From assembly GCA_016185505.1 (NCBI GenBank), contig JACPNL010000019.1, positions 2,885 through 66,884 of the forward strand: a stretch of DNA of 64,000 nt, written 5' to 3'. The notes beneath the pieces were generated by a model. The model searched no databases. It saw only the letters and a list, made by a program, of their open reading frames with translations, and was not told the DNA's origin. Both the position numbers and the translations under genes were made by a program. Shown here piece after piece: positions 37,074 to 63,332 of this stretch (its first letter is position 1; the number at the start of each line of letters is the position of its first letter). This DNA comes from Candidatus Yanofskybacteria bacterium. Its GTDB lineage: Bacteria > Patescibacteriota > Minisyncoccia > 2-02-FULL-40-12 > GWA2-44-9.

Positions 37074-37134
37074 CATGCGCATCCTTGACGGTTGCGCTTT
37101 TTTTATTTATCTTTTTTCAAAAGCACATTAATAA

Positions 37135-38238: not shown

Positions 38239-39374
38239 ATTTTTACGAAATTCTGGCTACCGGCTTAGATTCGTTGTCTGGTATTAGCCCTTCCGAAATC
38301 AAATATTCCCAGTGGCATATATCTGTCTGGCTGGCAGCTATACTGGCTATGCTAGTTATGCTGAAGTCATTGTTTAGCCGGAACAGCGATTCGCAAAAAT
38401 GTTCCGGCTATTTAATTCCCGCTTATTATCATCGGGGTTTCTCCCGTCAATTAGTTGATCTATTATTCAAGACAACTCTTGCGCTTGGCGTGGGTATGCT
38501 TCTCGTCGCGCTGGCTGATCCGTTTGTGCCGACAATTAAGACGGAGTCTGTTTTGAAAGAATCTAAGGAAAGGATAGATCTGATCGACGTTTCTACGTCC
38601 AAGGGCTGGTTATTTGAAAATATCGGCAAATCAGCCGGACGACTGGGGAGAGAAGCGCATCTTAAATTTCTAAAGATGCGCCAAGGCAAAAACGACAGAG
38701 TGTCTTTGTGGCTCTTTTCAACGAAAGCCACTAAGGTAGAAAGCTTTATCGCTGATGACGAACTTTATTATCAGCAGGTTGAAGATGCTCCGTATGTGAT
38801 CACCAGTCCGGGAAATCCTTGGCTGCCTCAGTTTAATTACCCTGCATCTTGCCACGTAAATATTCCCGAAAGCCGTTTGGAGTTAGTGTTCGCGGAAGGC
38901 GGGACTTTCTTAGATACCGGTCTTAGGTCGGTAATTAGACACTTTGACGAGGAAGGCGATAAAAGAATAAAAAGAAAAGCCGTTATCATAGAAACAGACG
39001 CCGCTGTAGACGTTTTTCCTAAAACAGAATTACAGGAATTACGCAAAAAAAATATTCATCCCTATTTTCTGTACATAAAACCAAACGAAGAATGCGAAAC
39101 ACTGGCTGGCAATATGTATAAAGGGCTTGTAAACGCGCAGAGATTGAAATTGGAAATTGAAAAATACGGGGGCAAATTTTATGATATTCAAAACGCAGAC
39201 AGTCTGAACAGGGCTTATCAGGATATTGACCGGCTTGAAGCGGTTGAACTCAAAGAAACCCATGTCGTTGACAAGCTGTACTTGTTTCAGGCGTTTATTC
39301 TGCTGGGTATCTTAATTGCGGTTATAGCAATTACCGGCATTTTAGTGGCTGAAATTTTTGGGATTTATCCGTAA
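38235..39374 (+). CDS. vWA-domain membrane protein (BatA-like), paralog 1
   Basis: N-terminal TM helices, MIDAS motif DVSTS and a C-terminal TM helix. A paralog of the ORF at 39481 (HLKFLKMRQGKNDRVSLWLF vs HLEFLKMREGKNDRVSFWIF). Confidence 0.6.
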   Translation: MNFYEILATGLDSLSGISPSEIKYSQWHISVWLAAILAMLVMLKSLFSRNSDSQKCSGYLIPAYYHRGFSRQLVDLLFKTTLALGVGMLLVALADPFVPTIKTESVLKESKERIDLIDVSTSKGWLFENIGKSAGRLGREAHLKFLKMRQGKNDRVSLWLFSTKATKVESFIADDELYYQQVEDAPYVITSPGNPWLPQFNYPASCHVNIPESRLELVFAEGGTFLDTGLRSVIRHFDEEGDKRIKRKAVIIETDAAVDVFPKTELQELRKKNIHPYFLYIKPNEECETLAGNMYKGLVNAQRLKLEIEKYGGKFYDIQNADSLNRAYQDIDRLEAVELKETHVVDKLYLFQAFILLGILIAVIAITGILVAEIFGIYP

Positions 39375-39480
39375 TCCCGTCTTCTCTTGTTTGAAGGCGG
39401 GTTTTTGTTTAGTATTGCGGCAAGTACGTTAAAAATTTAAGGGGCAGATTAAATGAAGCATTATTGTAGAGACAGAACTT

Positions 39481-40617
39481 ATGCTTAAGCGTATTTGGGA
39501 CACGGTTCTTATGATTTGGGAAGAAATTTATGATTTTTTGGGCATAAATTTTATGGAGATACATTATCCCGATATCAATTTTTCCATAGTCGCTGGTCTG
39601 ACTCTCTTATCACTGTTTTTGGTTAAAATTTTATGGCGGCGTCTTAAGCGGGACAAAAACGCGCAGAAACATTCCGGCCACGAAATAAGCAGATATTATT
39701 TGCGGGGGTTGATCGCCATGTTTTTAAGCGCTATTTCCAAAGGCGTGTTCGCGCTGGCGGTTGCCGGCGTTCTCTTGGCTCTAGCCGAACCGTTCTTAGA
39801 TCAGATAAGGGAAGACCAAAAGGTCATAGAATCAAGAGTCAGAGTTGACGTAAGGGACGTTTCGAGTTCGATGAAATTATTTTTCCCGAATGTTTCCAAG
39901 TCAAAAGCTCAAGTTGCCGCTGAAGCTCATTTAGAATTTTTAAAAATGAGAGAGGGTAAAAATGACAGAGTTTCTTTTTGGATTTTTGCTTCGTATCCGC
40001 ATCTGATTGAAGACTTTATCTCCGATGACGCCCTTTACTATCAGCAAGTTGAAGATGCTCCATGGTTAGCGCAGAGTATGAATATGGAATCTTCGTTCGG
40101 ATCGCAGGTGGTACCCGCAGAGAGATACGGCGCAATCTCCGGAGAAGGCGGAGGAACAGACATAGTTCTTATCCTTCAAGCGGTAATAAAACAGTTTGAC
40201 GAGGACGAAAAAAAGTTAGCAAAAGCGGGCATTAACATTAGAAGAATAAAAAGATCGGTGCTGGTGCTTACTGATGCCGAAGTATATGCGATACCTGATA
40301 ATGAATTAAACGGACTGCAACAAAGAAATATCAAGCCCTATGTTATCTGGATTAAAAGTTCGTTAGTGATTTCTACCCCTGATTTTATCAGCCGGGTACG
40401 CGCTTACGGCGGAGAGTATTTTGATGTTACCGACGAAAACAGTTTGGCAAGGGCCTACGAGTCAATCGACAAATTAGAAACCGCAAAGGTGGTGATTACT
40501 AGAAAATCATTTCAACTGCCTCTTTTTCAGAATTTTATTTTCATGGCTATCGTGATAATGTTTGTTGCCGTCTTTGTGGCTTTGTTGATTGAACCATTCG
40601 GTGTTTATCCAGAATGA
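39481..40617 (+). CDS. vWA-domain membrane protein (BatA-like), paralog 2
   Basis: MIDAS DVSSSM; same architecture as the ORF at 38235. Followed by the terminator AAACCTCCGTTATTGCGGAGGTTTTTT at 40628-40655. Confidence 0.6.
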   Translation: MLKRIWDTVLMIWEEIYDFLGINFMEIHYPDINFSIVAGLTLLSLFLVKILWRRLKRDKNAQKHSGHEISRYYLRGLIAMFLSAISKGVFALAVAGVLLALAEPFLDQIREDQKVIESRVRVDVRDVSSSMKLFFPNVSKSKAQVAAEAHLEFLKMREGKNDRVSFWIFASYPHLIEDFISDDALYYQQVEDAPWLAQSMNMESSFGSQVVPAERYGAISGEGGGTDIVLILQAVIKQFDEDEKKLAKAGINIRRIKRSVLVLTDAEVYAIPDNELNGLQQRNIKPYVIWIKSSLVISTPDFISRVRAYGGEYFDVTDENSLARAYESIDKLETAKVVITRKSFQLPLFQNFIFMAIVIMFVAVFVALLIEPFGVYPE

Positions 40618-40701
40618 TCAAGCGTCAAACCTCCGTTATTGCGGAGGTTTTTTAATTATTGTATAGTATCGCAAAGTTCATTTACATTGAGAAAAGCAAC
40701 T

Positions 40702-41442
40702 GTGGCAGAGAAAAGCGTGGCCAGGCGAGTTATCGGTTCAATTTTGGTTTTGATCACTGCTGTCGCTATGGGTTTTGTCGGCGACTGCCTGTATCAACTT
40801 AACGACCGCCGCAATCGGCTTCACTTGAATATCGCCAGTGGCGACCGCGAGCCATCTCGCGCCGAGCTGAATAATGTAAAATATTTTGACGGATTAGCGC
40901 GGCAATGGAAAATGCATTGGTTTGTCGCAGGCCGCTATCTGCTTAACAGCGATGATGCCATGCTTTACGAAGTGATTGTCGATGATTATTTGGTTGGTGA
41001 CTACAAGAAAGTGGCAGAATCAGAGCAGTTAAGGTCAAGCGACGACTATCGCGCCGCCCATCTTGTGGGAGTTGCCAAGGTTAGGCTTTTGCAGGCCGAA
41101 TACCGAGAAGAGAAAAAACCGGCGGCCCAAAAAAAGCTCATGGAGAAACTGGTCCAGCGCATGATTGATGACGTCAGTCCTTATTTTAAAAAAGCGGTTG
41201 AGAATAGCCCTGATTTCGAATTTCCCGATCCTAACTTTGGTGACCGCTTTAACTACGACTTAACAAGCGATAGGGATGCCGCCAAAAGACTGATTGAAAA
41301 CAAAAAGCCGGCCCGGAAATTTATTTTGGGAATTCCTCAATTGCCCGGAGATGAGTTTGGCGACAAGAAAGCGCCTGGGGAAAAGGGTCTTAACGAAGAA
41401 ACTCAACCGGGTGCCGGCGGTAATTCCAAGAAGAAGAGCTAG
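40702..41442 (+). CDS. Hypothetical membrane-anchored protein (possibly BatC-like)
   Basis: TM anchor VIGSILVLITAVAMGFVG followed by a charged helical domain. Start uncertain (GTG at 40702 or 40717; the ORF tracks from 40639 inside the terminator). Confidence 0.4.
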   Translation: MAEKSVARRVIGSILVLITAVAMGFVGDCLYQLNDRRNRLHLNIASGDREPSRAELNNVKYFDGLARQWKMHWFVAGRYLLNSDDAMLYEVIVDDYLVGDYKKVAESEQLRSSDDYRAAHLVGVAKVRLLQAEYREEKKPAAQKKLMEKLVQRMIDDVSPYFKKAVENSPDFEFPDPNFGDRFNYDLTSDRDAAKRLIENKKPARKFILGIPQLPGDEFGDKKAPGEKGLNEETQPGAGGNSKKKS

Positions 41443-41444
41443 CC

Positions 41445-42614
41445 ATGATAGCAAAACTGGCCGAATTCAGAAACCTTCAGTTTATTAGCCCGGAATATTT
41501 CAGTTTGTTTAACTTTCTTTATATTCTGCTTGTCGTCTGGCTTGTTGTTTTCGCTGTCCGATATAAAGAACGCGTGAACCGAACAGTCGGTTCGCGCCGT
41601 GTTCTGATTGGCAGAATGTTAAAATTTAACCTTGTTGTTATTGCCGTCGTTCTTCCTTTATCAATTCTGGCTTTATCCAGGCCATATCTTTCCGAGGGCG
41701 CTCTACAGTTTAAAAAAGGCGCTGTTGAGGTTATTTTTATTGTGGATGATTCGGTTTCAATGTGGGCGAAGGATATTGTGCCATCTCGGTTGGGAGTATC
41801 GGCTCGGGAAATTGCCCGGGTCTATGCGGACCAGATATTGAAAGAAGGAGATAAAGCGTCTCTGGTTATTTTCGGCAAGACGTCTTTGAAAAAATTGCGT
41901 CTTTCCACAGATTTTGAACGTTTTTATAGCGAGATTTTGAAAATAGGCCCGCCTGAAAGTCTGACCGGTGACGATCATCCGTGGGATTCCGATATCGCTT
42001 TGGCTCTGACGGATACTTACAACTTTCTTGATATGCAGGACAAGCGGTTAGCATATCGGACACGGTTTGGAAAAAATCCGCCCTTGGATTTTGATTGGGA
42101 AACATTTAGTTGGCAACCGGATAAAAAATCTAGCAGGATTGTCATATTTTTTGGTGATGGCGATTATCGTTTTGATGAATATACTGAAGAAAAAACAAAA
42201 CAACTCCAAGCATCTTTAGCGGAATTTCGTCGGCGAGGTCTTAAAATTTATTCGGTAGGCGTAGGCACTAAACAGGGTTACCCTGTGTACAGAGTCCTTG
42301 ATGATTATAAAAGAGGCGTTGATTATTTTGAGCAAACTGAAATTGAGTTGAAAGAGGAAGGAATGACCCGGCTTAATAGAATTACTCTGAATTTTCTAAG
42401 TAGCCAGACCGGCGGCAGTATGGCTACGATTGAAAATAGTACGGGAAGCGCGGCAAATTTTCTGCGCGTTGCTATTGACGGCCACAGGGAGTTAACTGTC
42501 ACTGTCGCCAGTGAACAACAAAAACAAGAATTTTGGAGAGAATTTTTGTACGCGGCATTACTGATTTTTGGGTTAGCTTTTCTCATTATTTTTGTATTGT
42601 CCCCCTATCTGTAG
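41445..42614 (+). CDS. vWA-domain membrane protein (BatA/BatB-like), paralog 3
   Basis: Two N-terminal TM helices, MIDAS IFIVDDSVSM, and a C-terminal TM helix. Confidence 0.65.
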   Translation: MIAKLAEFRNLQFISPEYFSLFNFLYILLVVWLVVFAVRYKERVNRTVGSRRVLIGRMLKFNLVVIAVVLPLSILALSRPYLSEGALQFKKGAVEVIFIVDDSVSMWAKDIVPSRLGVSAREIARVYADQILKEGDKASLVIFGKTSLKKLRLSTDFERFYSEILKIGPPESLTGDDHPWDSDIALALTDTYNFLDMQDKRLAYRTRFGKNPPLDFDWETFSWQPDKKSSRIVIFFGDGDYRFDEYTEEKTKQLQASLAEFRRRGLKIYSVGVGTKQGYPVYRVLDDYKRGVDYFEQTEIELKEEGMTRLNRITLNFLSSQTGGSMATIENSTGSAANFLRVAIDGHRELTVTVASEQQKQEFWREFLYAALLIFGLAFLIIFVLSPYL

Positions 42615-43685
42615 ATGGGGGCTTTTTATTACCGCTTCCATGCTGTACTCTATAGTTTGAGCATGTATTTGCGCGACTCTATTTTAGCGACCATTCTTTA
42701 TTATAATTCTTTTAATTTTCCGCTTACTTTTGCGGAGGTTTTTAAGTATCTTATAAATCCGCAAAGATTGAGGTTAAACCTCAATCAAGGGAGGATATTA
42801 AGGTCAGACTTCAATGAAAGGAGGTCTGACCTTGAATTTGGAGCGGCGGAGATTGCCGTCGAGTTGGAAAATATGGCCAGGGTAGATCTTATAGGTCATA
42901 AGAATGGGTTTTATTTTTTACCCGGGCGGGAAGATCTTTACGAAAAAAGAATAGAGAAAGACAAGTTGGCAAACAGAAAATGGAAAAAATTTCTCTCTAT
43001 AGCCAAATATCTTCAATTCGCGCCTTATTTGGGAGCTGTTTTTGCAAGCGGTTCTTTGGCGGCCAATAATCCCGAACCGAAAAGCGATTTTGATGTTTTC
43101 GTAATTGTTAGATCTGGTCGGCTTTATACCGGACGATTTTTCTTATGGCTGATCTCGTCGGTCCTTGGAGCCAGGCGTGGCCGGTTTGATGTCGTTGCTC
43201 CCGACAAGCTTTGCTTCAATCACTACTTAACCGACGATAATCTCGAATTGTCTCATCGCGGTCTCTATATCGCGCAGTCGCTTGCGAACATGAGGCCGGT
43301 CATTATGTCCGACGGGGTCTTGGAAAAATTCATAATATCAAATAAATGGGCCAGTTCTTATTGTTATAATTTAAGGCAGACAAGTTCCTACAGGAATGTA
43401 AAACCAAATAAAATTATGATTTCGACGGCTAGAATTTTTGAGTTGTTCCTAGATAATTTTGTCGGCGATTTATTGGAAAAAATCTTAAAAATTATCCAGC
43501 AAAAAAGAATAAAGAAAAACCCCGCTACTTACGAATCCGGCGGGCGGATTATTTTTAATGACAAGGAGCTTGAGTTTCACCCTCGTTCTTTCGAAAAAGT
43601 GGTTATTGATAATTATAACAGCGGACTCAAAAAGTTCGGCATATTGGGAGTCGAAGAAAAGGATTCGGGTTTGACCTGTGGATAA
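42615..43685 (+). CDS. Hypothetical protein with a minimal nucleotidyltransferase (Pol-beta-like) motif
   Basis: GSLAANNPEPKSDFDVFVIV fits the GS-x(9-13)-DhD NTase signature. Confidence 0.4.
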   Translation: MGAFYYRFHAVLYSLSMYLRDSILATILYYNSFNFPLTFAEVFKYLINPQRLRLNLNQGRILRSDFNERRSDLEFGAAEIAVELENMARVDLIGHKNGFYFLPGREDLYEKRIEKDKLANRKWKKFLSIAKYLQFAPYLGAVFASGSLAANNPEPKSDFDVFVIVRSGRLYTGRFFLWLISSVLGARRGRFDVVAPDKLCFNHYLTDDNLELSHRGLYIAQSLANMRPVIMSDGVLEKFIISNKWASSYCYNLRQTSSYRNVKPNKIMISTARIFELFLDNFVGDLLEKILKIIQQKRIKKNPATYESGGRIIFNDKELEFHPRSFEKVVIDNYNSGLKKFGILGVEEKDSGLTCG

Positions 43686-43801: not shown

Positions 43802-45649
43802 ATGACGAGGATGCTTCGTCCGATTTTGCTGGCGATGTTATTCATATTTATGATCGGGCCTTCCGTTTTCGCGCAGACGCCGAAACCGAAGATATTGAAA
43901 ATGTCTGAAATTCAGTTTAACACCCCAGCAGTCGGATTCTCTGTTTTCAGAGGAGTTGAGCCGGAGAGATTCGAAGTCAAAATCAAGCACGTAACCGATA
44001 TCGAGGGATTTCCGATAATACTTGCCCGTATCTCGGGTGGTCCTATGGAGACGCCGTTGGAAAAAATCGGCGCTGTTGAGGCAATGAGCGGCAGTCCGAT
44101 ATTTGTCGGTTGCGTTGAACTTGAAGAATGTGTCAGAAAAGTGGTTCTTCCCGATAACGACGTGTTTCTTGTCGGGGCTTTGAGTTATGCCCTCGGTTAT
44201 TTTATAGAAGATGGTCCAAATGTCGGACTGACAACGGCAGAATATATGCTGGGAGCGCGGCTAGGCGGTTATGCGGCTACGAGGCAGTTCTCAATTCGCC
44301 CGCCGAATAAAATAATTGTTGACGGTCGGGAATTCAAAAATCTCATGCTTTTTTCGGGAATTGACGGTTTGCAGACGCGGGGGGCGCTGCCCGACGGCAG
44401 TTGCGGCGAATCAGTCCAAAGCGATATCGGGCCGGGTTCAATGGTAACGGTTTTTCTCGCGAGAGGTTCGCGCAATATCGGTGGTTCAGGCACGGTAACC
44501 TGGAGAGACGGCAATACCATCTATATTTTTGGCCACCCGTTTTTTGGCACCGGCGCGGTAAGCTACCCGTTTGCGCAAGTGTCTGTAGCGGATACGCTTC
44601 AGACACCGTTTCAGGCTCACAAAATTATCGGTTGCCGTCTTAAAACGGAAGGCGAGATGCAGATGGATGGAATGTTTGAGATGGCTGGCGTTATCGGCCG
44701 GTCCGCCCGGCTATTGCCGTTTCAAGTTGAGATAGGCGATGATCTGGCTGTTTTTTCTGAAGAGATTGCGGAAAGTCCTCTCGCTTCTCTAATTATCAGT
44801 CAGCTTCCGGTTGTATGGGCGCAGAGCTTCCTTGGCGACCTAAGCCAAGTATCCGCGATTTATCAGACGCGTATAGCGGTAACGGATCATCCCGAAATAT
44901 TTTTGAGCGGGCTGTCGCCCGCGCAAGTGGTTAAAAATCCTTTTGCCGGGATCTTTTCCGAAATTAACCCTGTGCTGGGAAAATTAAGAGACAGTGGCTT
45001 TAGGTATAATTTAGAAGGCATCAAGACACATATTGATCTGGCCAGAGGCGCGAGCGTGTGGACAGAAAAGCGATCATTTCTATCGCAAAATACGGCGAAG
45101 CCGGGAGAGACGGTTTATGTGAACATTGTGCTTGAAGAGCGGTCAAGAGGGTTGAGAAGGCAGGTTAGTATTCCAGTCAAAGTGCCCGACGACTTTAATG
45201 ACAGATTAACTTCCGGGATTCCTCCTCAATTTTCAGTGATCGTGCAAAGCGCCGATAAATTTGTTGATAAAAACGCTTCCAAAGAATTTGCGTCTTTGCG
45301 CGATGTAATCGAGGCGATCAACGAATCAGCCGCGCGGTGGCAGAACGTTTTGTATGTTCAGCAAATTATGCCGTTGACGAAAGCGAAACACGAAGCCGTG
45401 GAGGAGGCCGCCAAGTTATCGGTTCAGCCGGATTGGAGCTGGGTTGAGCTGGATCAGGGAGCCATGTCCAGATTGCCTAAAACGGAAGAGACAGAGATCA
45501 TATTGACAAGCACGCCGGGGTTGGCCCATTTCATTAGCTTCGACGCGACTTTTAAGATCTTAGTCAAATCTTCGGATACAGCATCAGGCGGATCTGTAAA
45601 GAAAAATAAAAGATGGTTTGATTATCTCAAAGTATGGAGAATATTTTAA
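43802..45649 (+). CDS. Secreted protein with a GxSGSP serine-peptidase-like motif (S55/SpoIVB-like?)
   Basis: Signal peptide MLRPILLAMLFIFMIGPSVFA and the motif AMSGSPIFVG. 615 aa, otherwise unassigned. Confidence 0.35.
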   Translation: MTRMLRPILLAMLFIFMIGPSVFAQTPKPKILKMSEIQFNTPAVGFSVFRGVEPERFEVKIKHVTDIEGFPIILARISGGPMETPLEKIGAVEAMSGSPIFVGCVELEECVRKVVLPDNDVFLVGALSYALGYFIEDGPNVGLTTAEYMLGARLGGYAATRQFSIRPPNKIIVDGREFKNLMLFSGIDGLQTRGALPDGSCGESVQSDIGPGSMVTVFLARGSRNIGGSGTVTWRDGNTIYIFGHPFFGTGAVSYPFAQVSVADTLQTPFQAHKIIGCRLKTEGEMQMDGMFEMAGVIGRSARLLPFQVEIGDDLAVFSEEIAESPLASLIISQLPVVWAQSFLGDLSQVSAIYQTRIAVTDHPEIFLSGLSPAQVVKNPFAGIFSEINPVLGKLRDSGFRYNLEGIKTHIDLARGASVWTEKRSFLSQNTAKPGETVYVNIVLEERSRGLRRQVSIPVKVPDDFNDRLTSGIPPQFSVIVQSADKFVDKNASKEFASLRDVIEAINESAARWQNVLYVQQIMPLTKAKHEAVEEAAKLSVQPDWSWVELDQGAMSRLPKTEETEIILTSTPGLAHFISFDATFKILVKSSDTASGGSVKKNKRWFDYLKVWRIF

Positions 45650-52720: not shown

Positions 52721-53570
52721 GGACTCAAATATCCGCAAGACATGGTTATTGATGACCGTGTTTTTGGTTTTGATAATTTTTATCGGATGGATTTTCGGCT
52801 ACGTGTATAATTCGCCCGGAATATTGTATTTTGCCGTATTTTTGGCGGTGTTTATGAATTTTTTCGCTTATTGGTATTCCGACAAGGTCGCTTTAGCTAT
52901 GTCGGGCGCGAAGCCGGCATCTCGCGAGACGCATCTGGAACTTTTCCGCGTTGTTGAGAATTTGTCAATTACTGCCGGATTGCCGATGCCGAGGGTGTAT
53001 ATAATGCATAGCCCGCAGATAAACGCTTTTGCTACCGGCAGAAATCCTGAACACGCCGCGGTTGCCGTGACAGAGGGAGCGCTAATGAAATTAAATAAAA
53101 ATGAATTAGAGGGGGTAATGGCCCACGAACTCTCGCATATCGGCAACAGAGATATTCTTATTTCAACCGTTGTTGTTGTTCTGGCTGGACTTATAGCTAT
53201 TCTGGCTGACTGGTTTTTGCGGATGAGTATTTTTGGAAATTTCAGCAGGGGAAACGATAACAGACAAGGAGGAGCGATAATTTTATTGCTTGGCATTGCC
53301 GTGGCCATAGTTATGCCGCTGATCGCGACAATAATTCGTTTGGCGGTTTCACGAAAAAGAGAATTTCTTGCCGACGCATCGGGCGCTTTGCTAACGCGTT
53401 ATCCCGAAGGCCTTGCCGGCGCGCTTGAAAAAATCGCTCACGACGAAACACCTATGCGCCATGCTCACAGCGGAACGGCGCACCTTTTTATCTCTAACCC
53501 ATTTAAGGGTAAGCAAAAAACCAGCTGGTTCGCCCGACTATTTCTCACGCATCCCCCTTGTGGTGTATGA
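52698..53570 (+). CDS. htpX: Zinc metalloprotease HtpX (M48)
   Basis: HELSHIGNRD (HExxH) and 4 TM helices. Confidence 0.85.
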   Translation: MANLYQHKDSNIRKTWLLMTVFLVLIIFIGWIFGYVYNSPGILYFAVFLAVFMNFFAYWYSDKVALAMSGAKPASRETHLELFRVVENLSITAGLPMPRVYIMHSPQINAFATGRNPEHAAVAVTEGALMKLNKNELEGVMAHELSHIGNRDILISTVVVVLAGLIAILADWFLRMSIFGNFSRGNDNRQGGAIILLLGIAVAIVMPLIATIIRLAVSRKREFLADASGALLTRYPEGLAGALEKIAHDETPMRHAHSGTAHLFISNPFKGKQKTSWFARLFLTHPPCGV

Positions 53571-53770
53571 ATACTAATATTGTGGGACAATATCAAAATC
53601 TGGTCAAAGAGCAAGAAAAGTTAAGAAAAACGCTTAAAGACAACGAGCGTAAGCTTTTGTTTCTTAAACAATATCTGAAACATGTTGAGGATATAAAAAT
53701 TAGTCGAAACCAAATTAAGAATAAAAAACTAATTTCACAGGAGGAACTGTTTAATGAACTTGGAATCTAA
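53558..53770 (+). CDS. Putative antitoxin (partner of RelE/ParE)
   Basis: Small ORF overlapping the start of the toxin gene by 17 nt; helical and charged. The start may be M at 53567. Confidence 0.35.
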   Translation: MWCMNTNIVGQYQNLVKEQEKLRKTLKDNERKLLFLKQYLKHVEDIKISRNQIKNKKLISQEELFNELGI

Positions 53771-54029
53771 GTGGAAGATAAAGTATACCGATAATGCCGC
53801 GGATGATTTAAGAAAACTGCCCGAAAAATTACAGAGGCGCATCGCCGAGAAGATGCGTTTCTTTGTTTTATCAAGCGCCATGATTGTGCATGCCAAAAAA
53901 TTGAAAGATAATAAATATGGCACTTATCGTCTTCGTGTGGGTGACTATCGTGTTATTTTTGATAAAAATGATAAAACAAAAGAGTTATATGTTCTTAAAA
54001 TAGGCAAAAGAGACGAAGTGTATAAATAA
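53754..54029 (+). CDS. RelE/ParE-family type II toxin
   Basis: 91 aa with a RelE/ParE-like pattern (...YRLRVGDYRVIFDKNDKTKELYVLKIGKRDEVYK). Confidence 0.65.
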   Translation: MNLESKWKIKYTDNAADDLRKLPEKLQRRIAEKMRFFVLSSAMIVHAKKLKDNKYGTYRLRVGDYRVIFDKNDKTKELYVLKIGKRDEVYK

Positions 54030-54030
54030 T

Positions 54031-54116
54031 GGAGGGGTGTACCGAATGGTAAGGTACCCGCTTGGAAAGCGGGCGCCCGCAAGGGCTTGCAGGTTCGACT
54101 CCTGTCCCCTCCGCCA
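54031..54116 (+). tRNA. tRNA-Ser (anticodon GGA)
   Basis: GGAGGGG acceptor, TTGGAAA anticodon loop, long variable arm, GGTTCGACTCC T-arm, CCA encoded. Confidence 0.85.
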
Positions 54117-54348: not shown

Positions 54349-57300
54349 GTGCGAATCAAAAGCGTTTTTTTGATCCCGTTGGTTGTTGGTCGCGTAAAGC
54401 AACGTGGTCGCCACGCGACTTTACGTTGTTGGTTGCCGTGCCCTGTACTGTGCTTTGCTCTGGTACTGGGGTTGGCCATTAACTCTGCTTATGCTCAACT
54501 CGGGCAGTTCGGCAAGAACAATGTTCGTTATAACCAGCTGGACAAATTCTATAAATCATATCGATTTGATGTTCGGCACAACCTTGATACTAACGATCCG
54601 GTCCAGAAAGAATATCTGGAAATGGTCGTTGCTAATCTGGAGAACGCCCGTGATCGGATGAGCGGCCAGCAGTTTTATAACCATACGATAAAAAAAAGAA
54701 TTCCTATTTTTCTGTACAAGACCCATGCCGATATGGAGTCAAGTAATCTTGTCGGCGGGTTTTTGCCCGAAGGAGTCGGCGCGTTTGTGGAATGCGGAAG
54801 AAGGCGGGAAGTGCTTAAGGCCGATTTTTCAAAACCGTTGAGCCGAGCTATTGGTGTTCACGAGTTGGCGCATGAATTTCAGTGTGACATTTTGGATCCC
54901 GGTTTTGTTGATAAGGTAATGAATAACCGGCGCCCTCTTTGGTTTCATGAAGGCGGAGCTGAATTTATCGCCGGCCTGTACGAGCCGCATACGCGGGATG
55001 ACATTAGAAGGGATGGCCAGCGTATTGCTTCTTCTGACAGGCACTTTATTCCTACATGGGAAGCATGCAATCAAGGACGAGCAAATCCATATTCAGAGTG
55101 CGAAATGATTTTCGAATTGCTTGAGGAAAAATTTAGCGCGGGAGTGGCGTTTCAGGTTCAGGGATTCAAGCAGATCAAAGTCGGACTTGGCGAATTGCTT
55201 TATGACCTTACCAAAGGCGAACTTGGCAATCCGGATGTTGATTCCGAAAAGTTCAATCAAGGGATAACTCGTTTCTGGATGGACAAGTATGAGGACGAGT
55301 TTAATGCTCGGCCAAAGCCCGATGAAAAGAACGACAACTTTGAGGGACGTCTCGTTATGCCATGGGGTCATTCTGCTCCGATGAGCTCGCCACGCGTTTC
55401 ACTGGACGGTAAGCAACTCGCGGTGTTTACTGTTTTTAAGTATGGTGTGGGGTTAGGGAAGTACGAAATACCCAAAGATAAGATTTATGTTTCTAAAGAA
55501 GAAAGAGAAAAGTTAGCAGACGCAAACCAGGCCTTTGGTCCGAACGGCCATGAGCTGGTAAATCTTACGCCACAGCTTCCTCCTATTCCGTGGGAAGGAG
55601 TTATTAGTCAACTTGAGACATGGTCTTTTAACGGTTTTGACGAGAGCTGGTCTCCCGATGGAAGTAAGATGGCGTTTTTTGCCAAAACCAAAGATCACGC
55701 GCTGATGCTTATTGACGCCGAGACGGGTGATGTATTGAGAAAAATTGAATTGCCGCTTGATCAGGCATTCTCACCGTCATTTGCGTCGAATGGAGAGTCG
55801 CTGGTTTTCTCGGCGGCAAAGGATACCACGAGAGACATTTATATGATTAAACTTGAGAGCGGAGAATTTGAAAATCTAACTAAAGATGCCCGATATGACA
55901 CCGCGCCGCAGTTCAGTTCGGTGGAAGGAAAAGTTGTATATGTCGGTTCCGATGGCGATTTCCAGCACCTCTTTCTGATGGATTTGAGCAACGGCAATGA
56001 TCGTATTACGATCGAGCAGCTTACATTCGGCGATTTCAACGATAGCTGGCCGAGCTGGTCGGATGACGGCTCAACGATCGTTTACGCTTCGGACGAAGCT
56101 GACGGGATTTGGAATCTGTACACTCTTGAACTGTCTACACGAACAGTCAGGCAATGGACCGAATTTCTTTTGGGGTCAAAGACGCCCGTCTTTGCCAAAG
56201 GGACGACGGATACCGTTTACCACGTATCAGCCGCGGAAGATACTCAAAGCGGCGGTGTGTTTGACAAGGTTTTTGAGGCGAAGTTAAAAAAGCCGATCCG
56301 GGAATACACGGTTCGGGACACGGGATCGGCTGGAACGTATGTTTTCAATCCTTCGCGTGATTTGATCAAGTTTGAGCTTGATGAAAATCAACTTCTCAAC
56401 CCGACGCCGGCGCCGGAACAATGGGAATGCGGAGGCGGCGAAGTCGCTTTTGGCGCCAGTACTTATTGGGGAATAGTTAGTCAGGGTTTTGTCAGGTGTT
56501 CCAACATCCTTGAGACCAAACATCATCTTGGTCGATATGTTTCATACTACGGTATTAATATTTTTGACTATTCAAACATAAACCAAGAGAAACGTACGAC
56601 TTGGCTTTGGGGCATCAGCCACAATCAAATGCCTCTCTCTTATCGGCACTACGATATAGCGAAAAGATTTCCCAAACAGCCCATTCTTAACCGGACGTGG
56701 GTCAAAGAGTCGTCGCTTAATCTTTCTGCCGCGTATCCATTCAGCAAGTTCAAACGTTTGGAGCTTTACTCGAAACTCCGTCATCGCTCGTTCGCCAACG
56801 TTCTTAATCCCGACGAGCTTTCTGTTGATGACTTGCAAGTAAAAAGATTCCTTGACAACTCAACCGGTTCTAATTTTGTTTTTGGCACGGCTTATGTTCG
56901 AGATACGGTTCTGTCCTCCGGCAACACCTGGGGGCCATTCCATGGTAACGCGCTTCGGGCGCAGATTGAATTCGCGCCGCCATTGGGCGAGGAATTTCAG
57001 GGTTACACGTCCGTGAACATTTCGGGTAGAACTTATCGGCATCTTGGATCAAATTCGTTGTTTGCTGGCCGAGTCGATTTGATGGCTAACACGAGAGCCA
57101 ATGGCGATTATATACTGTTTGGCGGACCGGAATTCGGGCGTGGCGCCGAATACGGTGGTATTATCTGTAACCAATGCGCCTACGCCAGCATGGAATTGAG
57201 ATTCCCGATCCCGGGGACATATCTTCTGGGTGCACCAGTAAGAGCATTTCTATATGACGATATGGCTGTGGCCAGATTTAGTGACGAAAGATTTCCTGTC

Positions 57301-57429
57301 CAAAAATTCAATATACCCGGGATGGGTGTTCAGTTCTTTATTCCGTTCGTGGGTTTGCCCGCCCAGATGACGTGGCGGCTGGAAGATAAGAGGTTGATAC
57401 CGACTTTCTATGTTGCTATGCCCTGGTAG
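54349..57429 (+). CDS. Large exported multidomain protein: HExxH zincin-like N-domain, TolB-like beta-propeller, C-terminal Omp85/BamA-like motif
   Basis: Signal peptide ...LGLAINSAYAQ; HELAHEF plus FHEGGAEF. Repeated TolB-type blades (SWSPDGSKMAFF, SPSFASNGESLVFSA, SWPSWSDDGSTIVYASDE). The C-terminus FGGPEFGRGAEYGG...MELRFPIP...VRAFLYDDMAVA...GMGVQFFIPFVGLP...YVAMPW resembles the Omp85 barrel signature and ends in an aromatic residue. The start codon is uncertain. Confidence 0.7.
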   Translation: MRIKSVFLIPLVVGRVKQRGRHATLRCWLPCPVLCFALVLGLAINSAYAQLGQFGKNNVRYNQLDKFYKSYRFDVRHNLDTNDPVQKEYLEMVVANLENARDRMSGQQFYNHTIKKRIPIFLYKTHADMESSNLVGGFLPEGVGAFVECGRRREVLKADFSKPLSRAIGVHELAHEFQCDILDPGFVDKVMNNRRPLWFHEGGAEFIAGLYEPHTRDDIRRDGQRIASSDRHFIPTWEACNQGRANPYSECEMIFELLEEKFSAGVAFQVQGFKQIKVGLGELLYDLTKGELGNPDVDSEKFNQGITRFWMDKYEDEFNARPKPDEKNDNFEGRLVMPWGHSAPMSSPRVSLDGKQLAVFTVFKYGVGLGKYEIPKDKIYVSKEEREKLADANQAFGPNGHELVNLTPQLPPIPWEGVISQLETWSFNGFDESWSPDGSKMAFFAKTKDHALMLIDAETGDVLRKIELPLDQAFSPSFASNGESLVFSAAKDTTRDIYMIKLESGEFENLTKDARYDTAPQFSSVEGKVVYVGSDGDFQHLFLMDLSNGNDRITIEQLTFGDFNDSWPSWSDDGSTIVYASDEADGIWNLYTLELSTRTVRQWTEFLLGSKTPVFAKGTTDTVYHVSAAEDTQSGGVFDKVFEAKLKKPIREYTVRDTGSAGTYVFNPSRDLIKFELDENQLLNPTPAPEQWECGGGEVAFGASTYWGIVSQGFVRCSNILETKHHLGRYVSYYGINIFDYSNINQEKRTTWLWGISHNQMPLSYRHYDIAKRFPKQPILNRTWVKESSLNLSAAYPFSKFKRLELYSKLRHRSFANVLNPDELSVDDLQVKRFLDNSTGSNFVFGTAYVRDTVLSSGNTWGPFHGNALRAQIEFAPPLGEEFQGYTSVNISGRTYRHLGSNSLFAGRVDLMANTRANGDYILFGGPEFGRGAEYGGIICNQCAYASMELRFPIPGTYLLGAPVRAFLYDDMAVARFSDERFPVQKFNIPGMGVQFFIPFVGLPAQMTWRLEDKRLIPTFYVAMPW

Positions 57430-57469: not shown

Positions 57470-57535
57470 GAGGTCGAACCTCCCTCGGGAGGTTCGACCC
57501 CTAACCCTCGCTCTTGCGGGGGTTTTTAATTAATG
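57470..57535 (+). terminator. Tandem hairpin terminator
   Basis: GAGGTCGAACCTCCCTCGGGAGGTTCGACCCC followed by CCCTCGCTCTTGCGGGGGTTTTT. Confidence 0.5.
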
Positions 57536-57676: not shown

Positions 57677-58351
57677 TTGATAATGAGAAAAGGCCTTGTT
57701 TTAGCGCTGATTGTTTTCTTTTTCTGTACCAACTTTGCCAGAGCCGATACGCCGCCCGCGGTGAGCTTGTCGAAGCCGTTTCCGGCGAATTGTTCCGTGC
57801 CGATTCCCGATATGAGCAACTGGCCAATTATTCGAAAAACGCGCGTCGAATTTCGTATTTCCGACGAGACGCCGGCTTATCTCGGCGCGGCTATTGAATA
57901 TAAGAATTATCGCGGCTCTGCTGATTTCGGAGAATTTATACAGATGTTCGGTCGCCATACTCCTTTTATACCTCAAAGGCAAAAACCGGACGAGCAATCA
58001 TTTTTTCAGACCGCGGCTTTTCTTTATGCTCAACAGGAAGAAGAGACAACCCTCCGGCAGCTTGACAAACAAATTGACCCGATTCTTTATATAAGATGGC
58101 GGGTCAAAACAGATCAGCGCGTCAACGGAGACAAATTGGACGCGGATGTTGACGTATGGTTTTTACAGTCAAACGGACGATGTTTATTTGCTCAAAATGA
58201 AAAAATATCCATTCAGTTGCTGACAGAAAGTATGGGAGACGGCGAATCGCGTAATGTTTTTGCCGGAGTCAGATACAAAATAGACGATCTCTCTCATATT
58301 CTAAAAGCTGATCGCCGTGATATTGCTAACTTGATGAACGGAGGCCGCTAA
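57677..58351 (+). CDS. Hypothetical secreted protein
   Basis: Signal peptide MIMRKGLVLALIVFFFCTNFARA; 224 aa. Palindromic operator-like sites lie upstream (TATGATACGATGGTGTATCATA; AAATGGGCAAGGCGACTTGCCCATTT). Confidence 0.45.
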   Translation: MIMRKGLVLALIVFFFCTNFARADTPPAVSLSKPFPANCSVPIPDMSNWPIIRKTRVEFRISDETPAYLGAAIEYKNYRGSADFGEFIQMFGRHTPFIPQRQKPDEQSFFQTAAFLYAQQEEETTLRQLDKQIDPILYIRWRVKTDQRVNGDKLDADVDVWFLQSNGRCLFAQNEKISIQLLTESMGDGESRNVFAGVRYKIDDLSHILKADRRDIANLMNGGR

Positions 58352-59730
58352 TGACTAAAACATTGCGTCTTTCATTTGTTTCCTATCTCCTAATTCCTAT
58401 CTCCTGTTTCCTGCTTTTGTCCGGTTGCGCCGGCAAAAAGATCAAAATAGACCCGAGTAACCCCGTTTATGGGCCAAAGAACGATTTTGAACGAGATTAC
58501 GGTTTCTTTATTACTCCGGATGAGAAGAAAAACGGTTATGCCGCGGGGTTTTGCCTCGGGTTGGCGAGACCGGAAACGATTCAACCGTTTAATGAAATTG
58601 ACACACTGGCAGAGTTTCGCAAGTTTGAAAAATGCTTCTGGGATATACGGGATACTAATACGCAAACTTCGCAGAATGAATTTAAGGTGTTGATCGACGG
58701 CCGACTCAAAGATATCGAAAACGAGATCTTTGCTTCTGATATTGATATTCCGGGTACGCGTTTTCAGGGTCCCAGCGGCGGCCTGAAGGGGGACTTGGCC
58801 CATGTTTATCTGCTCTGGGGCGCGCCTGCGCCGGGCAATAAAGCAAAATTGAATAAGGGCAGTTATCATACCGAATTGACGGTTTGGTATTATTTTTTCA
58901 ACAACAGGGTTTTATTCAGTTTTCTCTTCTATAATGATCATGGCCGAGTCCGGTTGTTTAAGGAATATGGGGCCTTGTTTGGGCTGGATCTTTTTGATCC
59001 GCTGGCTTCTCCTTTGCGATTGATCGGCAATCGGCCGGCTAATACACGGGAAGAGATGATGGAGATTTGGAATGAACTTGAATATAATGATCCGGAAGAA
59101 ATATTTAGAAACGCTTTGTTTAGATTCTCGTCCTACAAGGACTGGGTGGTTGAGAACGGAAACGGCAAAGACAAATTTGGGGCTATTGATCCTCCCATAC
59201 CGATAATGCTGGCCGCGAAACGGTTTAGGCCAACAATTTTAGGTCAGCCGAATATCCCCGAAGGAACGGAGTTGTTCGAAAACGGGTATCACTCGTTTAT
59301 TCCGGTAGATCTCCAGATCGCCGCCGATCCGATCGGGGGCAGACCTTCTTTCTCGTTTACGGTGGCTTATGCCGACCTGGACTGGGAGGTTAAAGATAAA
59401 ACAGCCGAAGCGGTTCTGAATGTCAGGATCAGTTTTCAAAATAAGAAAACCCGAGCTCTGGATGAATTTGAAACCAGGGTAGTATTTAAGGGGCCGCGGC
59501 AAGCCGTTGAGTCCTTGATTCGCGGAAAGAATCCCAAAACAGGCGAACCAAATTCCAGAACAGTTGATCTGAATGGGATGATGAATTTTGCGGCCGGTAA
59601 GGATCAAGCCACTCTGCGCCAGTTGATCGATGGATTTGAACAGAGCGAGTATGTGGTCAATATCTACTTCCAGCACACTCTCACTAAGAAATACAATACT
59701 TGGCGAGAAGAGATAGAAATTAAGAAATAG
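58351..59730 (+). CDS. Hypothetical lipoprotein
   Basis: Signal peptide plus lipobox LLSGCAG; 459 aa. Start overlaps the previous stop (ATGA). Followed by the terminator GAAATTCCCTGCGGGGAATTTTTT at 59756-59782. Confidence 0.5.
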   Translation: MTKTLRLSFVSYLLIPISCFLLLSGCAGKKIKIDPSNPVYGPKNDFERDYGFFITPDEKKNGYAAGFCLGLARPETIQPFNEIDTLAEFRKFEKCFWDIRDTNTQTSQNEFKVLIDGRLKDIENEIFASDIDIPGTRFQGPSGGLKGDLAHVYLLWGAPAPGNKAKLNKGSYHTELTVWYYFFNNRVLFSFLFYNDHGRVRLFKEYGALFGLDLFDPLASPLRLIGNRPANTREEMMEIWNELEYNDPEEIFRNALFRFSSYKDWVVENGNGKDKFGAIDPPIPIMLAAKRFRPTILGQPNIPEGTELFENGYHSFIPVDLQIAADPIGGRPSFSFTVAYADLDWEVKDKTAEAVLNVRISFQNKKTRALDEFETRVVFKGPRQAVESLIRGKNPKTGEPNSRTVDLNGMMNFAAGKDQATLRQLIDGFEQSEYVVNIYFQHTLTKKYNTWREEIEIKK

Positions 59731-59914: not shown

Positions 59915-61968
59915 ATGGATAATGTTTCTAAAATTAAGGATCGCTTAAGCGTGGTTGATGTCATTTCCGGGTACCTGAAACTCCAAAAAGCCGGAGCGAA
60001 TTTCAAGGCCTCTTGTCCTTTTCACAACGAAAAAACGCCATCGTTTTTCATATCTCCCGAACGCCAGACGTGGAAGTGTTTTGGTTGTTCCAAGGGTGGT
60101 TCGATCTTCGATTTTGTAATGGAGATGGAGGGGGTTGAGTTTCCCGAGGCATTGAGAATACTTGCCGCAAAGGCAGGCATAGAACTGGAAAAGTTTGACT
60201 CTACCATCAAGGACTCAAAAGATCGCCTCTATCAAATATGCGAGTCATCAGCCCGGTTTTTCGAAAAGCAATTAAGCTATTCCGGCGCGGGCCGACGAGC
60301 TATTGAATATTTGAAAAGCAGAGGGCTCCAGGAGACAACGATGGCAAAATTCCGTCTTGGGTTCGCGCCCGATACATGGGATGCATTGAGCGGATATTTA
60401 CGCAATTCTGGTTTTACTGAAAAAGAGATAGTGGATGCGGGAGTAGTGGTCAAAAGACAACCAACAACCAACAACCAACAACAGGGATCTACGACAGGTT
60501 TCGTTCGCGCATAATGTTTCCTGTTTCGGATGCTAACGGCAGGGTTGTGGGGTTCACTGGCCGCATCTTTGAAGACAAGGTCCCGACGCGCGAAGTGGTC
60601 GGGACCCCGACTTCTGATTTTGATCAAGCCACAAAGGGGCTCGACAACAGTCAGAGCGTCGTGGCCAAATATATCAATACCCCGCAGACGCTTATCTATG
60701 ACAAAAGCAGGATACTTTACGGCCTTGACCATTCCCGAACCGACATCAGAAAAAAGGATAAATGTCTTCTTGTAGAAGGCAATATGGACGCCATCATGTC
60801 TTATCAGGCTGGTGTGACGCACGTGGTTGCTTCATCGGGAACCGCTCTTACGCCGATGCATCTTGCCATCCTGAAAAGATTTACTAACAATCTGGACTTC
60901 TGCTTTGATACGGATTCTGCCGGAGTGATGGCGACCAAAAGGGGTATAGCAATAGCGCTCGGACAGGATTTTAACGTCAAGGCGGTCTCACTTGACGACC
61001 CCGTAAAATCGTCTAAAGACGATCACGGGGCAAGATGCAAGGACCCCGCTGATTATATTCAGAGGTACGGAAGCAACCTCGCCGCTTCGGGTCCCGGAGT
61101 GGGATCCCAAGCACTCCTTGGGAACTCTGTCGGGGCAAGCTGGATAGAAGTGGTTGAAAAAGCGAAGCCGGTCGTGGAATTCTACTTTGATAAAGCCAAA
61201 GAAAGTTATAATCCCGAATCGGCGGAAAGTAAAAAGAATGTCATCTTGACCGTTGCTCCTTTCGTCAAGCGGCTTGTCAGCAACGTGGAGAGAACTCACT
61301 GGGTGAACCAGTTGGCGTATCTGCTTCGTGTGAAAGAAGAGGCCGTTGAGGCAGATATAAGGGATGCTCCTGATATTGATGTTGGCTATGTTGGAAGTGT
61401 TCGAAACGTTGGAAATGACAACTCGAACAACTCGAACAAGCCAGCAGGCGATCAAACAAGCGAAGCAGGGTACAGTCCTGTACCCCGCGAAGCGGTCGAA
61501 CAAGTGTTGAACGAGGCTCTATTATCCCTTGTTGTTAAAAAACCGGTATTATTCAAACAAGAAATCATGACGCTTGATAAAAGTTTTTTAAACCCGTTGG
61601 CATCACAAGTTCTTGATGAGTTGGCGAAGGAAGACCTGGAGCAATTCAATTTCAGCAATTTCATAAAAAAATTCGATTCGGATCCCGAACAACAGCAAGT
61701 TGTATACGGGGCAGGTAAAACACTTGATGTAGAATTTGTTTATCTAAGATCGCAAGCATTGTGGGACGATTTCAAAGATGACGAACTTAAAATGGAATTT
61801 AAAAATATATTCAATAAATTAAAACAAAAAACGATCCATTTGCGTCTTGCCGATCTCGGGTACGAAATGAGAGCGGCAGAAGCGGTTGGAGATAGAGCAA
61901 AGATAGGCGAACTCGCGTCGGTGTTTAATAAGTTGGCGGGGGAGTTGGCGGAGATACACAAAATTTAA
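59915..61968 (+). CDS. dnaG: DNA primase DnaG, split into two ORFs by an apparent frameshift inside a CAACCAA repeat
   Basis: ORF 59915-60514 gives the CHC2 zinc finger (CPFHNEKTPSF...WKCFGC). ORF 60514-61968 gives TOPRIM (LLVEGNMDAIMSYQAG) and the C-domain. The conserved IYDRFRSRIMFPVSD motif reads through from frame 1 at 60487, so the shift lies within CAACCAACAACCAACAACCAACAACAG (60457-60486). Confidence 0.7.
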
Positions 61969-62075
61969 ATCAAATATCAAATATCAAAAATCAAAACGAC
62001 AAATCAAAATTCAAAATTTCTAATCTTTCATATGTATTTCTAATCTTTGATATTTAATTTTTAATTTATATAATC

Positions 62076-63332
62076 ATGTCTAAATCAAAAAAACATCATA
62101 AAAAAAGGAGTGTCAAAAAGTTGATAAAGAGGAGAACGTCCCGGCCGAAAAAAATTACCAAGAAAGTCAAAAAGGCTAAAGCCAAAGGAACCCATCCTTC
62201 GCTAAAGCTACGGAGGGCAAAGAAAAAGTCGGGAGCAAAAAAAGCAGGCGCAAAACTCGGCGAGAGCGCCATTTTGGCTTTGATAGAGAAGGGGAAACAT
62301 CGGGGCTTCGTTACACAGTCCGAGGTTTTGAATTCTTTTCCCGAGGTTGAGAGAGATATCAAGGGCCTTGAGATGTTGTACGAACGGCTTGAGTCGTCGA
62401 ATATCAATATCATAGAATCAGGCAAGGTTTTTGAAGAAGAAAAGACCAAAGAATATGAGGAAAAGAAAAAGATACAAGAAGAGTTCGGCGAATCAGCGGT
62501 ATCTGATTCGGTCCAGATGTATCTTAAAGAAATAGGCCAGTATCCTTTGCTGACCGGAGACGAAGAAGTGGAATTAGCCAAAAGAATAGCGAAGGACGAT
62601 GAGGCGGCCAGGCAGCGTTTGGCGGTATCCAATTTGCGCCTCGTCGTATCAATAGCGAAAAAATACGTCGGCCGCTCGGCAAATCTGACCTTGCTGGATT
62701 TGATACAAGAAGGGAACATAGGCCTGTTCAAAGCGGTTGAAAAATTTGATTACAAAAAGGGCTTCAAATTCTCGACTTACGCGACCTGGTGGATACGCCA
62801 AGCCATAACCCGCGCTCTTGCCGATCAGGGCAGGACCATCCGCATTCCTGTGCATATGGTGGAGACGATAAACAAATACCAGCAGGTGGTGCGTCGGCTT
62901 GTGCAGGATTTAGGCCGAGACCCGCTTCCGGAGGAAGTAGCTTCGGAAATGGGCGTTGAAGTGGAGAAGATCAGGCATATTCAGAAGATATCGCAAGAAA
63001 CGGTCTCGCTTGAAGCGCCGGTAGGGGAGGACGATGACAGCGATAGCGCGCTGGAAAGTTTTATCCCCGATGAGGATACCATTTCTCCTTCAACTTCAGC
63101 CGCGAGGAAAATCCTCAAAACATATTTGAATGAAATAATCAGTGATCTGACTCCGAGGGAGCAGAAGATACTTGATATGCGATTTGGCCTCGGCGATGGC
63201 GTGACCCACACCCTTGAAGAAGTGGGCAAGGTTTTTGTTGTCACCCGCGAGCGTATCAGGCAGATAGAAGCCAAGGCGCTTGAGAAGATTCGCCAGCATA
63301 CCAAACTCGGAAAACTCAAGGGATACGAATAA
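62076..63332 (+). CDS. rpoD: RNA polymerase sigma factor RpoD (sigma-70) with a Lys-rich N-terminal extension
   Basis: Regions 1.2-4 conserved ([40 protein letters not shown]; C-terminal HTH). The first ~60 aa are KKxK-rich and histone-H1-like. Confidence 0.9.

Follow-up and report, generated by a model that had tools for sequence, protein, structure and literature searches.

The gene and its exported product

The DNA analysed here (the window) comprises 64,000 nucleotides (nt) from a Candidatus Yanofskybacteria genome belonging to the candidate phyla radiation (CPR; assembly GCA_016185505.1, contig JACPNL010000019.1, positions 2,885 to 66,884). At 54349..57429 on the forward strand, the window carries a gene encoding a protein of 1026 amino acids (aa) in which a gluzincin domain, a PD40 propeller and an Omp85-type barrel follow one another. 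This gene is the first of a module of three, in which the second encodes a small secreted protein and the third a GWxTD lipoprotein. Its open reading frame (ORF) begins with a GTG start codon, with a GAGGGA Shine-Dalgarno sequence located 8 nt upstream. The ORF does not represent a chance reading frame, because a search of 5.8 billion proteins returned about 90 full-length homologs at 30-70% identity. Those with a source name are assigned to Yanofskybacteria, Taylorbacteria, Paceibacterota or just "bacterium". Among the database entries, P0001, encoded by a 68.7-kb contig, is 100% identical to the window protein and carries the NCBI product name "PD40 domain-containing protein" from Ca. Yanofskybacteria. 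Judged from the tags of the next two genes, the locus should be HYX22_02315. The window itself represents core chromosome and contains rpoB, rpoC, ftsK, the RNase J gene, groEL, pyrG, dnaG and rpoD.

The protein starts with a long signal peptide (residues 1-49; 54349..54495, forward strand), identified from the sequence, with a signal peptidase I site between AYA (A49) and the following Q. Residue A49 is nearly invariant, and F54, G55 and N57 are also conserved among the homologs. In total, 46 homologs, including distant ones from diderms, were aligned. An AlphaFold2 model of the 1026-aa protein, built from this 46-sequence alignment, reached a pLDDT of 86.1 and a pTM of 0.84, with low pLDDT at residues 1-54. 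The protein is exported to the envelope by the Sec route and belongs to the PD40 ("WD40")-Omp85 subfamily. From the sequence alone (the original prediction), it had been proposed that the 1026-aa protein is exported and fuses a zincin to a TolB-like propeller and an Omp85-type barrel; the motifs, profiles and model described below bear this out for a CPR organism.

Protease and propeller domains

The first domain (residues ~55-325; 54511..55323, forward strand) is a gluzincin domain of the Peptidase_MA_2/M1-like type, as indicated by its invariant motif, the Pfam matches of homologs and the model. The HExxH motif, H171-E172-x-x-H175, is located at 54859-54873 within HELAHEF, and the third ligand, E201, at 54949-54951 within WFHEGGAEF, both on the forward strand. 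The segment had been described as zincin-like, and all four motif residues (H171, E172, H175 and E201) proved invariant in 46/46 homologs, distant diderms included. In the model, a beta-sheet is followed by the HExxH helix (162-182) and then by the E201 helix (197-211), which is the gluzincin layout. The HExxH motif with a downstream Glu is common to the window protein and to M1-type and Peptidase_MA_2 proteins. The signature HELAH...W-x-x-E-G-x-A resembles that of M1 aminopeptidases; M1 gluzincins have 18 residues between HExxH and the Glu, whereas the window protein has 25.

At the profile level, Pfam Peptidase_MA_2 (PF13485; cutoff 32.4 bits) matched the homolog P0103 with 54.7 bits and an Acidobacteriota ortholog (L031) with 33.1 bits. 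Both of these aligned diderm homologs pass this cutoff, and neither the window copy nor the other CPR members scanned gave a PF13485 match. NCBIfam returned a weak flagellinolysin HExxH match on the window protein (1e-4). Taken together, domain 1 is a predicted M1-like zinc protease domain, for which catalysis would follow from the conserved zinc-site residues. [quoted passage not shown] BepA is an M48 protease with TPR repeats and a separate polypeptide, whereas the protease of the window protein is fused to the barrel.

The second domain (residues ~330-655; 55336..56313, forward strand) is a six-bladed, TolB-type PD40 beta-propeller. It matched Pfam PD40 (1e-14), a TolB in the PDB by phmmer (1e-15) and the NCBIfam TolB propeller model TIGR02800 (2e-23). 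The original prediction had counted at least five TolB-like blades; the profiles agree with the fold, and DSSP on the AlphaFold2 model assigned 24 strands, which correspond to six blades. The TIGR02800 match covers only profile positions 197-366 of 418. Orthology to TolB was rejected because the score of 83 bits is far below the 343-bit equivalog cutoff; furthermore, there is no TolB N-terminal domain and no Tol-Pal gene context. TolB of the Tol-Pal system shares only its fold with the window propeller.

Propeller and barrel are joined by a short linker (residues 656-692; 56314..56424, forward strand), for which DSSP of the model gave two short helices only. No POTRA domain was matched by Pfam in the window protein or its orthologs.

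The C-terminal barrel

The last domain (residues 693-1026; 56425..57426, forward strand) is a 16-stranded Omp85-type beta-barrel. Structure prediction had been proposed as a check on the Omp85/BamA-like barrel ending in Trp that was read from the sequence, with the lack of a barrel counting against it. The AlphaFold2 model contains such a C-terminal barrel, with 16 long beta-strands at residues 693-1022 and a confidence of about 90 throughout. Foldseek matched it to the barrels of E. coli BamA (TMt 0.65) and TamA (TMt 0.70), as well as to Sam50. The strands alternate hydrophobic and polar faces. In addition to the model and Foldseek, the original assignment is sustained by the profiles and by the lid-lock residues described below.

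Single-sequence Pfam and NCBIfam searches of the window protein returned PD40/TolB and a weak HExxH match only, with no Omp85, and phmmer against the PDB returned TolB only. Therefore, the assignment of the barrel required profiles, orthologs and predicted structure. A profile of the CPR members only matched Fusobacterium nucleatum BamA over the last ~170 residues (E 8e-4), and a profile of the wider family matched F. nucleatum BamA at 3.8e-13 and D. radiodurans BamA at 9.6e-8. With Pfam Omp85 (PF01103; gathering cutoff 24), two CPR orthologs scored 41.8 bits (P0044) and 39.4 bits (P0069). By these profiles, it is the family as a whole that is placed in the Omp85 superfamily, and not the window sequence taken alone.

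The characteristic lid-lock residues of the L6 loop and strand beta13 were both located on the forward strand: Arg931 of the L6 motif at 57139-57141 and Asp971 of beta13 at 57259-57261. The L6 Arg (R931, l-R-G) is at least 90% conserved and the beta13 Asp (D971, l-F-x-D-x-a) is invariant. In the window copy, the motifs are slightly degenerate, with GRG in place of LRG and LYDDMA in place of LFxDxG/A. The C-terminal residue is W, F or Y in 46/46 family members and Trp1026 in the window protein. When 36 CPR orthologs were compared, their mean pairwise identity was 0.45 over the protease, 0.50 over the propeller and 0.43 over the barrel; within the barrel, it was 0.44 for strands and 0.43 for loops. 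These values, the conserved motif residues, the terminal aromatic residue and the alternating strand faces suggest that the barrel, which is POTRA-less and has an intact lid-lock (L6 Arg/beta13 Asp), is under selection.

With only the barrel as query, an exhaustive phmmer search of 1.84 billion representatives found just 75 relatives, all of the same architecture or fragments from short contigs, and no second kind of Omp85 in CPR.

Partner genes and conserved synteny

The original prediction had placed the gene at the head of a run of three exported proteins, which agrees with the signal peptide of partner 1 and the lipobox of partner 2. Partner 1 (HYX22_02320; 57677..58351, forward strand) is a secreted orphan protein of 224 aa with a signal peptide, and it adjoins the large gene in all CPR loci. 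It had only 7 database homologs, all from this CPR lineage, and no match in Pfam or, by profile search, in the PDB. Partner 2 (HYX22_02325; 58351..59730, forward strand) is a GWxTD lipoprotein of 459 aa; its lipobox reads LLSGC, and the gene starts in overlap with the partner 1 stop at 58351. Between the large gene and partner 1, a consensus scan gave a weak terminator-like feature, a GC-rich hairpin followed by a T-run (57503..57524, forward strand).

The GWxTD model TIGR04514 matched 15 of 16 partner 2 orthologs (best 1.5e-13), and the window copy scored 23.2 bits against a cutoff of 28. The homologs of partner 2 carry the NCBI name "GWxTD domain-containing protein", and are essentially restricted to CPR; most of its orthologs have a lipobox. 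An AlphaFold2 model of partner 2 (pLDDT 83.8) depicts a helical/alpha-beta N-domain and a C-terminal beta-sandwich. Foldseek of this model returned only weak Ig-like sandwich matches (TM<=0.2), none of them informative in the PDB, and profiles of both partners gave nothing significant against the PDB. No paper on GWxTD was found in the literature.

Among the GTDB species representatives, tblastn and profile hidden Markov models (HMMs) located both partners beside the large gene in 19/19 distinct CPR loci. In one of these (L014 13017-14800, Paceibacterota), both partner genes are downstream on the opposite strand, a local inversion in which they still adjoin the Omp85 gene. By the same methods, no partner was detected within +/-10 kb of the non-CPR orthologs. 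The neighbours of two diderm orthologs include a TPR protein, GlmU, GlmS and a ClC channel (L030), and a phosphatase and a GntR regulator (L026).

One flank of the gene holds pyrG, htpX and tRNA-Ser, and the opposite flank dnaG-rpoD. The tRNA-Ser(GGA), detected by ARAGORN at 54031-54116 (forward strand), is a conserved upstream landmark, present on the same strand in 7/10 related loci checked. Downstream, dnaG (two ORFs in the window) and rpoD (59915..63332, forward strand) anchor the module, and they usually come next after it in related CPR loci. For instance, contigs of 173 kb (L001), 120 kb (L003) and 75 kb (L005) carry, in order, the large gene, a gene of ~205-220 aa, a gene of ~415-440 aa, in some cases a purF-like gene, dnaG and rpoD. 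The guanine-cytosine (GC) fraction of 54349..57429 is 0.46-0.47, inside the range of the window.

The tRNA-Ser and the RelE/ParE-type gene just upstream, which the original prediction had noted, are both present, the latter as a ParE toxin gene at 53754-54029 (Pfam 1.6e-9). The reading of this neighbourhood as acquired DNA did not hold: the module is syntenic in all 19 CPR loci. A recent island was rejected because the synteny is conserved, the tRNA-Ser is conserved upstream and the GC fraction is normal. The tRNA-Ser(GGA) is a synteny landmark and not an island boundary, and the three-gene module is fixed in, and ancestral to, the Yanofskybacteria lineage. What differs from genome to genome is only the stretch that separates the tRNA from the gene.

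The distance from tRNA-Ser(GGA) to the Omp85 gene ranges from 0.2 kb in the window to ~5 kb, with varying cargo (L005, L008, L009, L012, L017, L022 and L024). In L001 (2516-5193), no tRNA was detected, and an AccI-type restriction enzyme and an Eco57I-like methylase are encoded upstream of the Omp85 gene. The stretch downstream of tRNA-Ser may represent an insertion hotspot, with the Omp85 module itself fixed. In the window, a 70-aa ORF without family match (53558-53770), a presumed antitoxin gene, overlaps the ParE gene; this pair is located directly 5' of the tRNA-Ser and was not found at that position in related loci.

Relatives outside CPR and origin of the gene

The nearest full-length relatives outside CPR were found in Acidobacteriota, including Thermoanaerobaculia, and in candidate division B38, with 25-30% identity over residues ~40-1009. 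More distant relatives include an Elusimicrobiota protein and a protein (P0106) from a marine contig on which BamA and two OmpH proteins are encoded as well. These diderm homologs share the length and domain order of the window protein. In the case of one non-CPR locus (L082 6886-9188), the family gene is split: a 384-aa N-terminal ORF overlaps a 395-aa barrel ORF, which could be a frameshift or a genuine two-piece arrangement.

In bootstrapped neighbor-joining trees, the CPR sequences were monophyletic in 100/100 bootstraps in each of three data sets (full length, the two N-terminal domains, barrel). The grouping of the CPR and Acidobacteriota clades received 100 (full length), 100 (N-terminal) and 84 (barrel) of 100 bootstraps. 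Since the three trees agree, the three-domain gene has one history. The whole gene was probably acquired once, anciently, from an Acidobacteriota-like diderm and then inherited vertically; we infer the direction of this transfer, as the trees are distance-based and unrooted.

The window protein belongs to the WD40/PD40-Omp85 subfamily. In the accessible text of their survey, Heinz and Lithgow (2014) divided the Omp85/TpsB superfamily into ten subfamilies; among these is "WD40-Omp85", which has a TolB-like propeller and was described from diderms (PMC4104836). As presented there, this subfamily combines an N-terminal TolB-like propeller with a C-terminal Omp85 barrel and no POTRA, as does the window protein. 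The same portion of the survey does not mention an N-terminal gluzincin domain for this subfamily, and the "Metallo" subfamily that it describes (PF00149, PMC4104836) is unrelated to the window protein. Compared with the diderm WD40-Omp85 proteins, the gene is here fixed in a CPR lineage regarded as monoderm, and it is accompanied by two CPR-specific partner genes, which are absent beside the diderm orthologs.

Other known classes were also considered. Membership in BamA, TamA or TpsB, and in the type Vd (PlpD-like) autotransporters, which consist of a passenger, POTRA and a 16-strand barrel, was rejected because there is no POTRA domain. BamA, TamA and Sam50 have POTRA, whereas the window protein has a protease and a propeller instead; the likeness in sequence is at the profile level only and does not imply insertase function. 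A parallel in gene organisation is offered by SonA-SonB of diderm Firmicutes, in which the genes of an Omp85-family barrel and of a lipoprotein share a conserved operon (PMC13018214). As in the window module, the barrel gene of SonA is paired with a lipoprotein gene. In contrast to the window protein, SonA has three POTRA domains and neither protease nor propeller, and its lipoprotein is unrelated in sequence to the GWxTD lipoprotein.

A proposed envelope protease complex

The explanation that we favour, and consider reasonably probable, is a barrel-anchored envelope zinc protease complex whose gene was gained once by ancient transfer. After export, the barrel would fold into a surface lipid bilayer, inserting itself without a pre-existing BAM complex, and it would anchor the protease and propeller on the side of its termini, in the wall or a "periplasm-like" space. 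The propeller may gate the access of substrates (peptides or proteins) to the zinc site, a role that propellers have in other propeller-gated peptidases. Both the lipoprotein and the small protein could be accessory subunits of such a complex, much as BamA or SonA have lipoprotein partners. Candidate membranes for the barrel are an as yet unrecognised outer lipid layer in the lineage, a host membrane or the cell's own membrane. BamA and SonA fold spontaneously into liposomes (PMC13018214), which, together with the SonA-lipoprotein operon, makes BAM-independent insertion and barrel-lipoprotein pairing plausible.

Several points weigh against this explanation. Patescibacteria are called monoderm in a recent review (PMC11665869), and CPR have been described as having lost the outer membrane, of which Omp85/BamA is listed among the signature features (PMC10160955). 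An Omp85-type barrel had been called unexpected in a putatively monoderm CPR organism; CPR being described as monoderm, the barrel has no known membrane. Neither the 64-kb window nor the flanks (+/-10 kb) of the related loci showed any other outer-membrane gene, and no BamA was found in the window. On its own, the window protein gave no Omp85 or Peptidase_MA_2 profile match at E<=1 (Pfam), and both assignments draw on orthologs, profiles and a structure that is predicted. For the partners, no informative fold or family match was obtained except GWxTD. Finally, no experimental characterisation of subfamily members was found, in diderms or elsewhere.

Only tentatively do we suggest that a whole order-level CPR lineage (Yanofskybacteria and relatives) keeps a functional, membrane-embedded Omp85, either in an outer bilayer, where this POTRA-less, self-inserting barrel and its lipoprotein would be a minimal assembly or anchor machine, or in an unprecedented cytoplasmic- or host-membrane setting. 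A genomic marker of the outer membrane (PMC10160955) is here conserved, vertically inherited and apparently functional in a CPR clade. The gene bears on whether all CPR are monoderm, on Omp85 function without BAM and a classical outer membrane, and on the role of the protease-propeller-Omp85 subfamily. Furthermore, the GWxTD domain and an orphan secreted protein are now tied to an Omp85 partner. No paper reporting Omp85 in CPR was found.

Alternative explanations

The Yanofskybacteria may not be strictly monoderm, an outer lipid layer or patches of it holding the POTRA-less Omp85, which could be its own insertase, with the partners forming a minimal BAM-like complex. This possibility refines the envelope protease explanation by naming the membrane. 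It would account for the retention under selection of the 16 strands, the lid-lock, the C-terminal aromatic residue (46/46) and the amphipathic strands, as well as for the co-conserved lipoprotein partner, and it is in line with the use of Omp85 as an outer-membrane signature (PMC10160955). However, the consensus in the literature is that CPR are monoderm (PMC11665869, PMC10160955), and the ~64-kb window and the flanks of the 19 loci contain no other outer-membrane biogenesis gene. We regard it as unlikely.

Alternatively, the barrel could be directed at a host, the epibiotic CPR cell planting it in a diderm's outer membrane, where it would act as an anchor or conduit while protease and propeller work at the interface. 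CPR, as obligate epibionts, have numerous surface and host-attacking proteins (PMC11665869), Omp85 barrels insert spontaneously into bilayers (PMC13018214), and the gene is lineage-specific and of diderm origin. However, for Ca. Yanofskybacteria, of which enrichment cultures have been described (PMC9600506), the hosts reported from bioreactors are Methanothrix archaea; these lack an outer membrane (PMC9600506, PMC10936435), and this weakens the idea of host insertion. Insertion from outside would also invert the normal topology, and no secretion or delivery system is encoded beside the gene. We see in this proposal a long shot. Among the Yanofskybacteria-Methanothrix papers checked, none mentions the window protein.

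It is highly improbable that the barrel is a decaying relic or a soluble beta-domain, with only protease and propeller functional. The degenerate motifs of the window copy (GRG, LYDDMA) and its lack of a Pfam Omp85 match on its own would fit such decay. Against this, the barrel is no relic because it is as conserved as the protease (0.43 vs 0.45, with 0.50 for the propeller), and its strands are conserved as much as its loops; on this per-domain comparison, decay was rejected. Moreover, R931, D971 and the terminal aromatic residue are kept in orthologs down to 30% identity, the AlphaFold2 confidence is about 90 across the barrel, and no truncated CPR copies were seen in full context, the short matches coming from short contigs.

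That the contig or gene is DNA of a diderm, such as an Acidobacteriota, mis-binned or chimeric in a CPR metagenome-assembled genome (MAG), has a negligible probability: MAGs can contain contamination and the nearest non-CPR relatives are Acidobacteriota, but this source was effectively refuted because the gene is syntenic with dnaG-rpoD on many independent contigs (at least 19 from CPR, the longest of 265 kb, whose rpoD shares 82-94% identity with that of the window), is flanked by pyrG, htpX, tRNA-Ser and dnaG-rpoD on a contig with rpoB, rpoC, ftsK and groEL, has an unremarkable GC fraction and falls in a CPR clade of its own (100/100 bootstraps).

Other features of the window and related loci

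Four of the related loci (L018, L020, L022 and L024) are labelled "uncultured Candidatus Saccharibacteria", yet they display the Yanofskybacteria type of synteny and an rpoD 82-87% identical to that of the window. Their taxonomic labels look unreliable.

Downstream of the module, dnaG is broken up into an ORF at 59915-60514 and a second one at 60514-61968, and of an ortholog's DnaG, residues 1-192 align in one frame and residues 177-628 in a different one. The frameshift is located within the low-complexity stretch ACAACCAACAACA (TTNNQQ) at ~60470-60500, where an assembly indel or a real frameshift is possible.

Elsewhere in the window, a same-strand cluster resembling the Bat-type aerotolerance genes was observed at 35026-43685. 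It encodes a MoxR-type AAA_3 ATPase, a DUF58 protein, four ORFs without family and a VWA_2 protein, and it is followed at 43802-45649 by a gene for a 615-aa protein without assignment.

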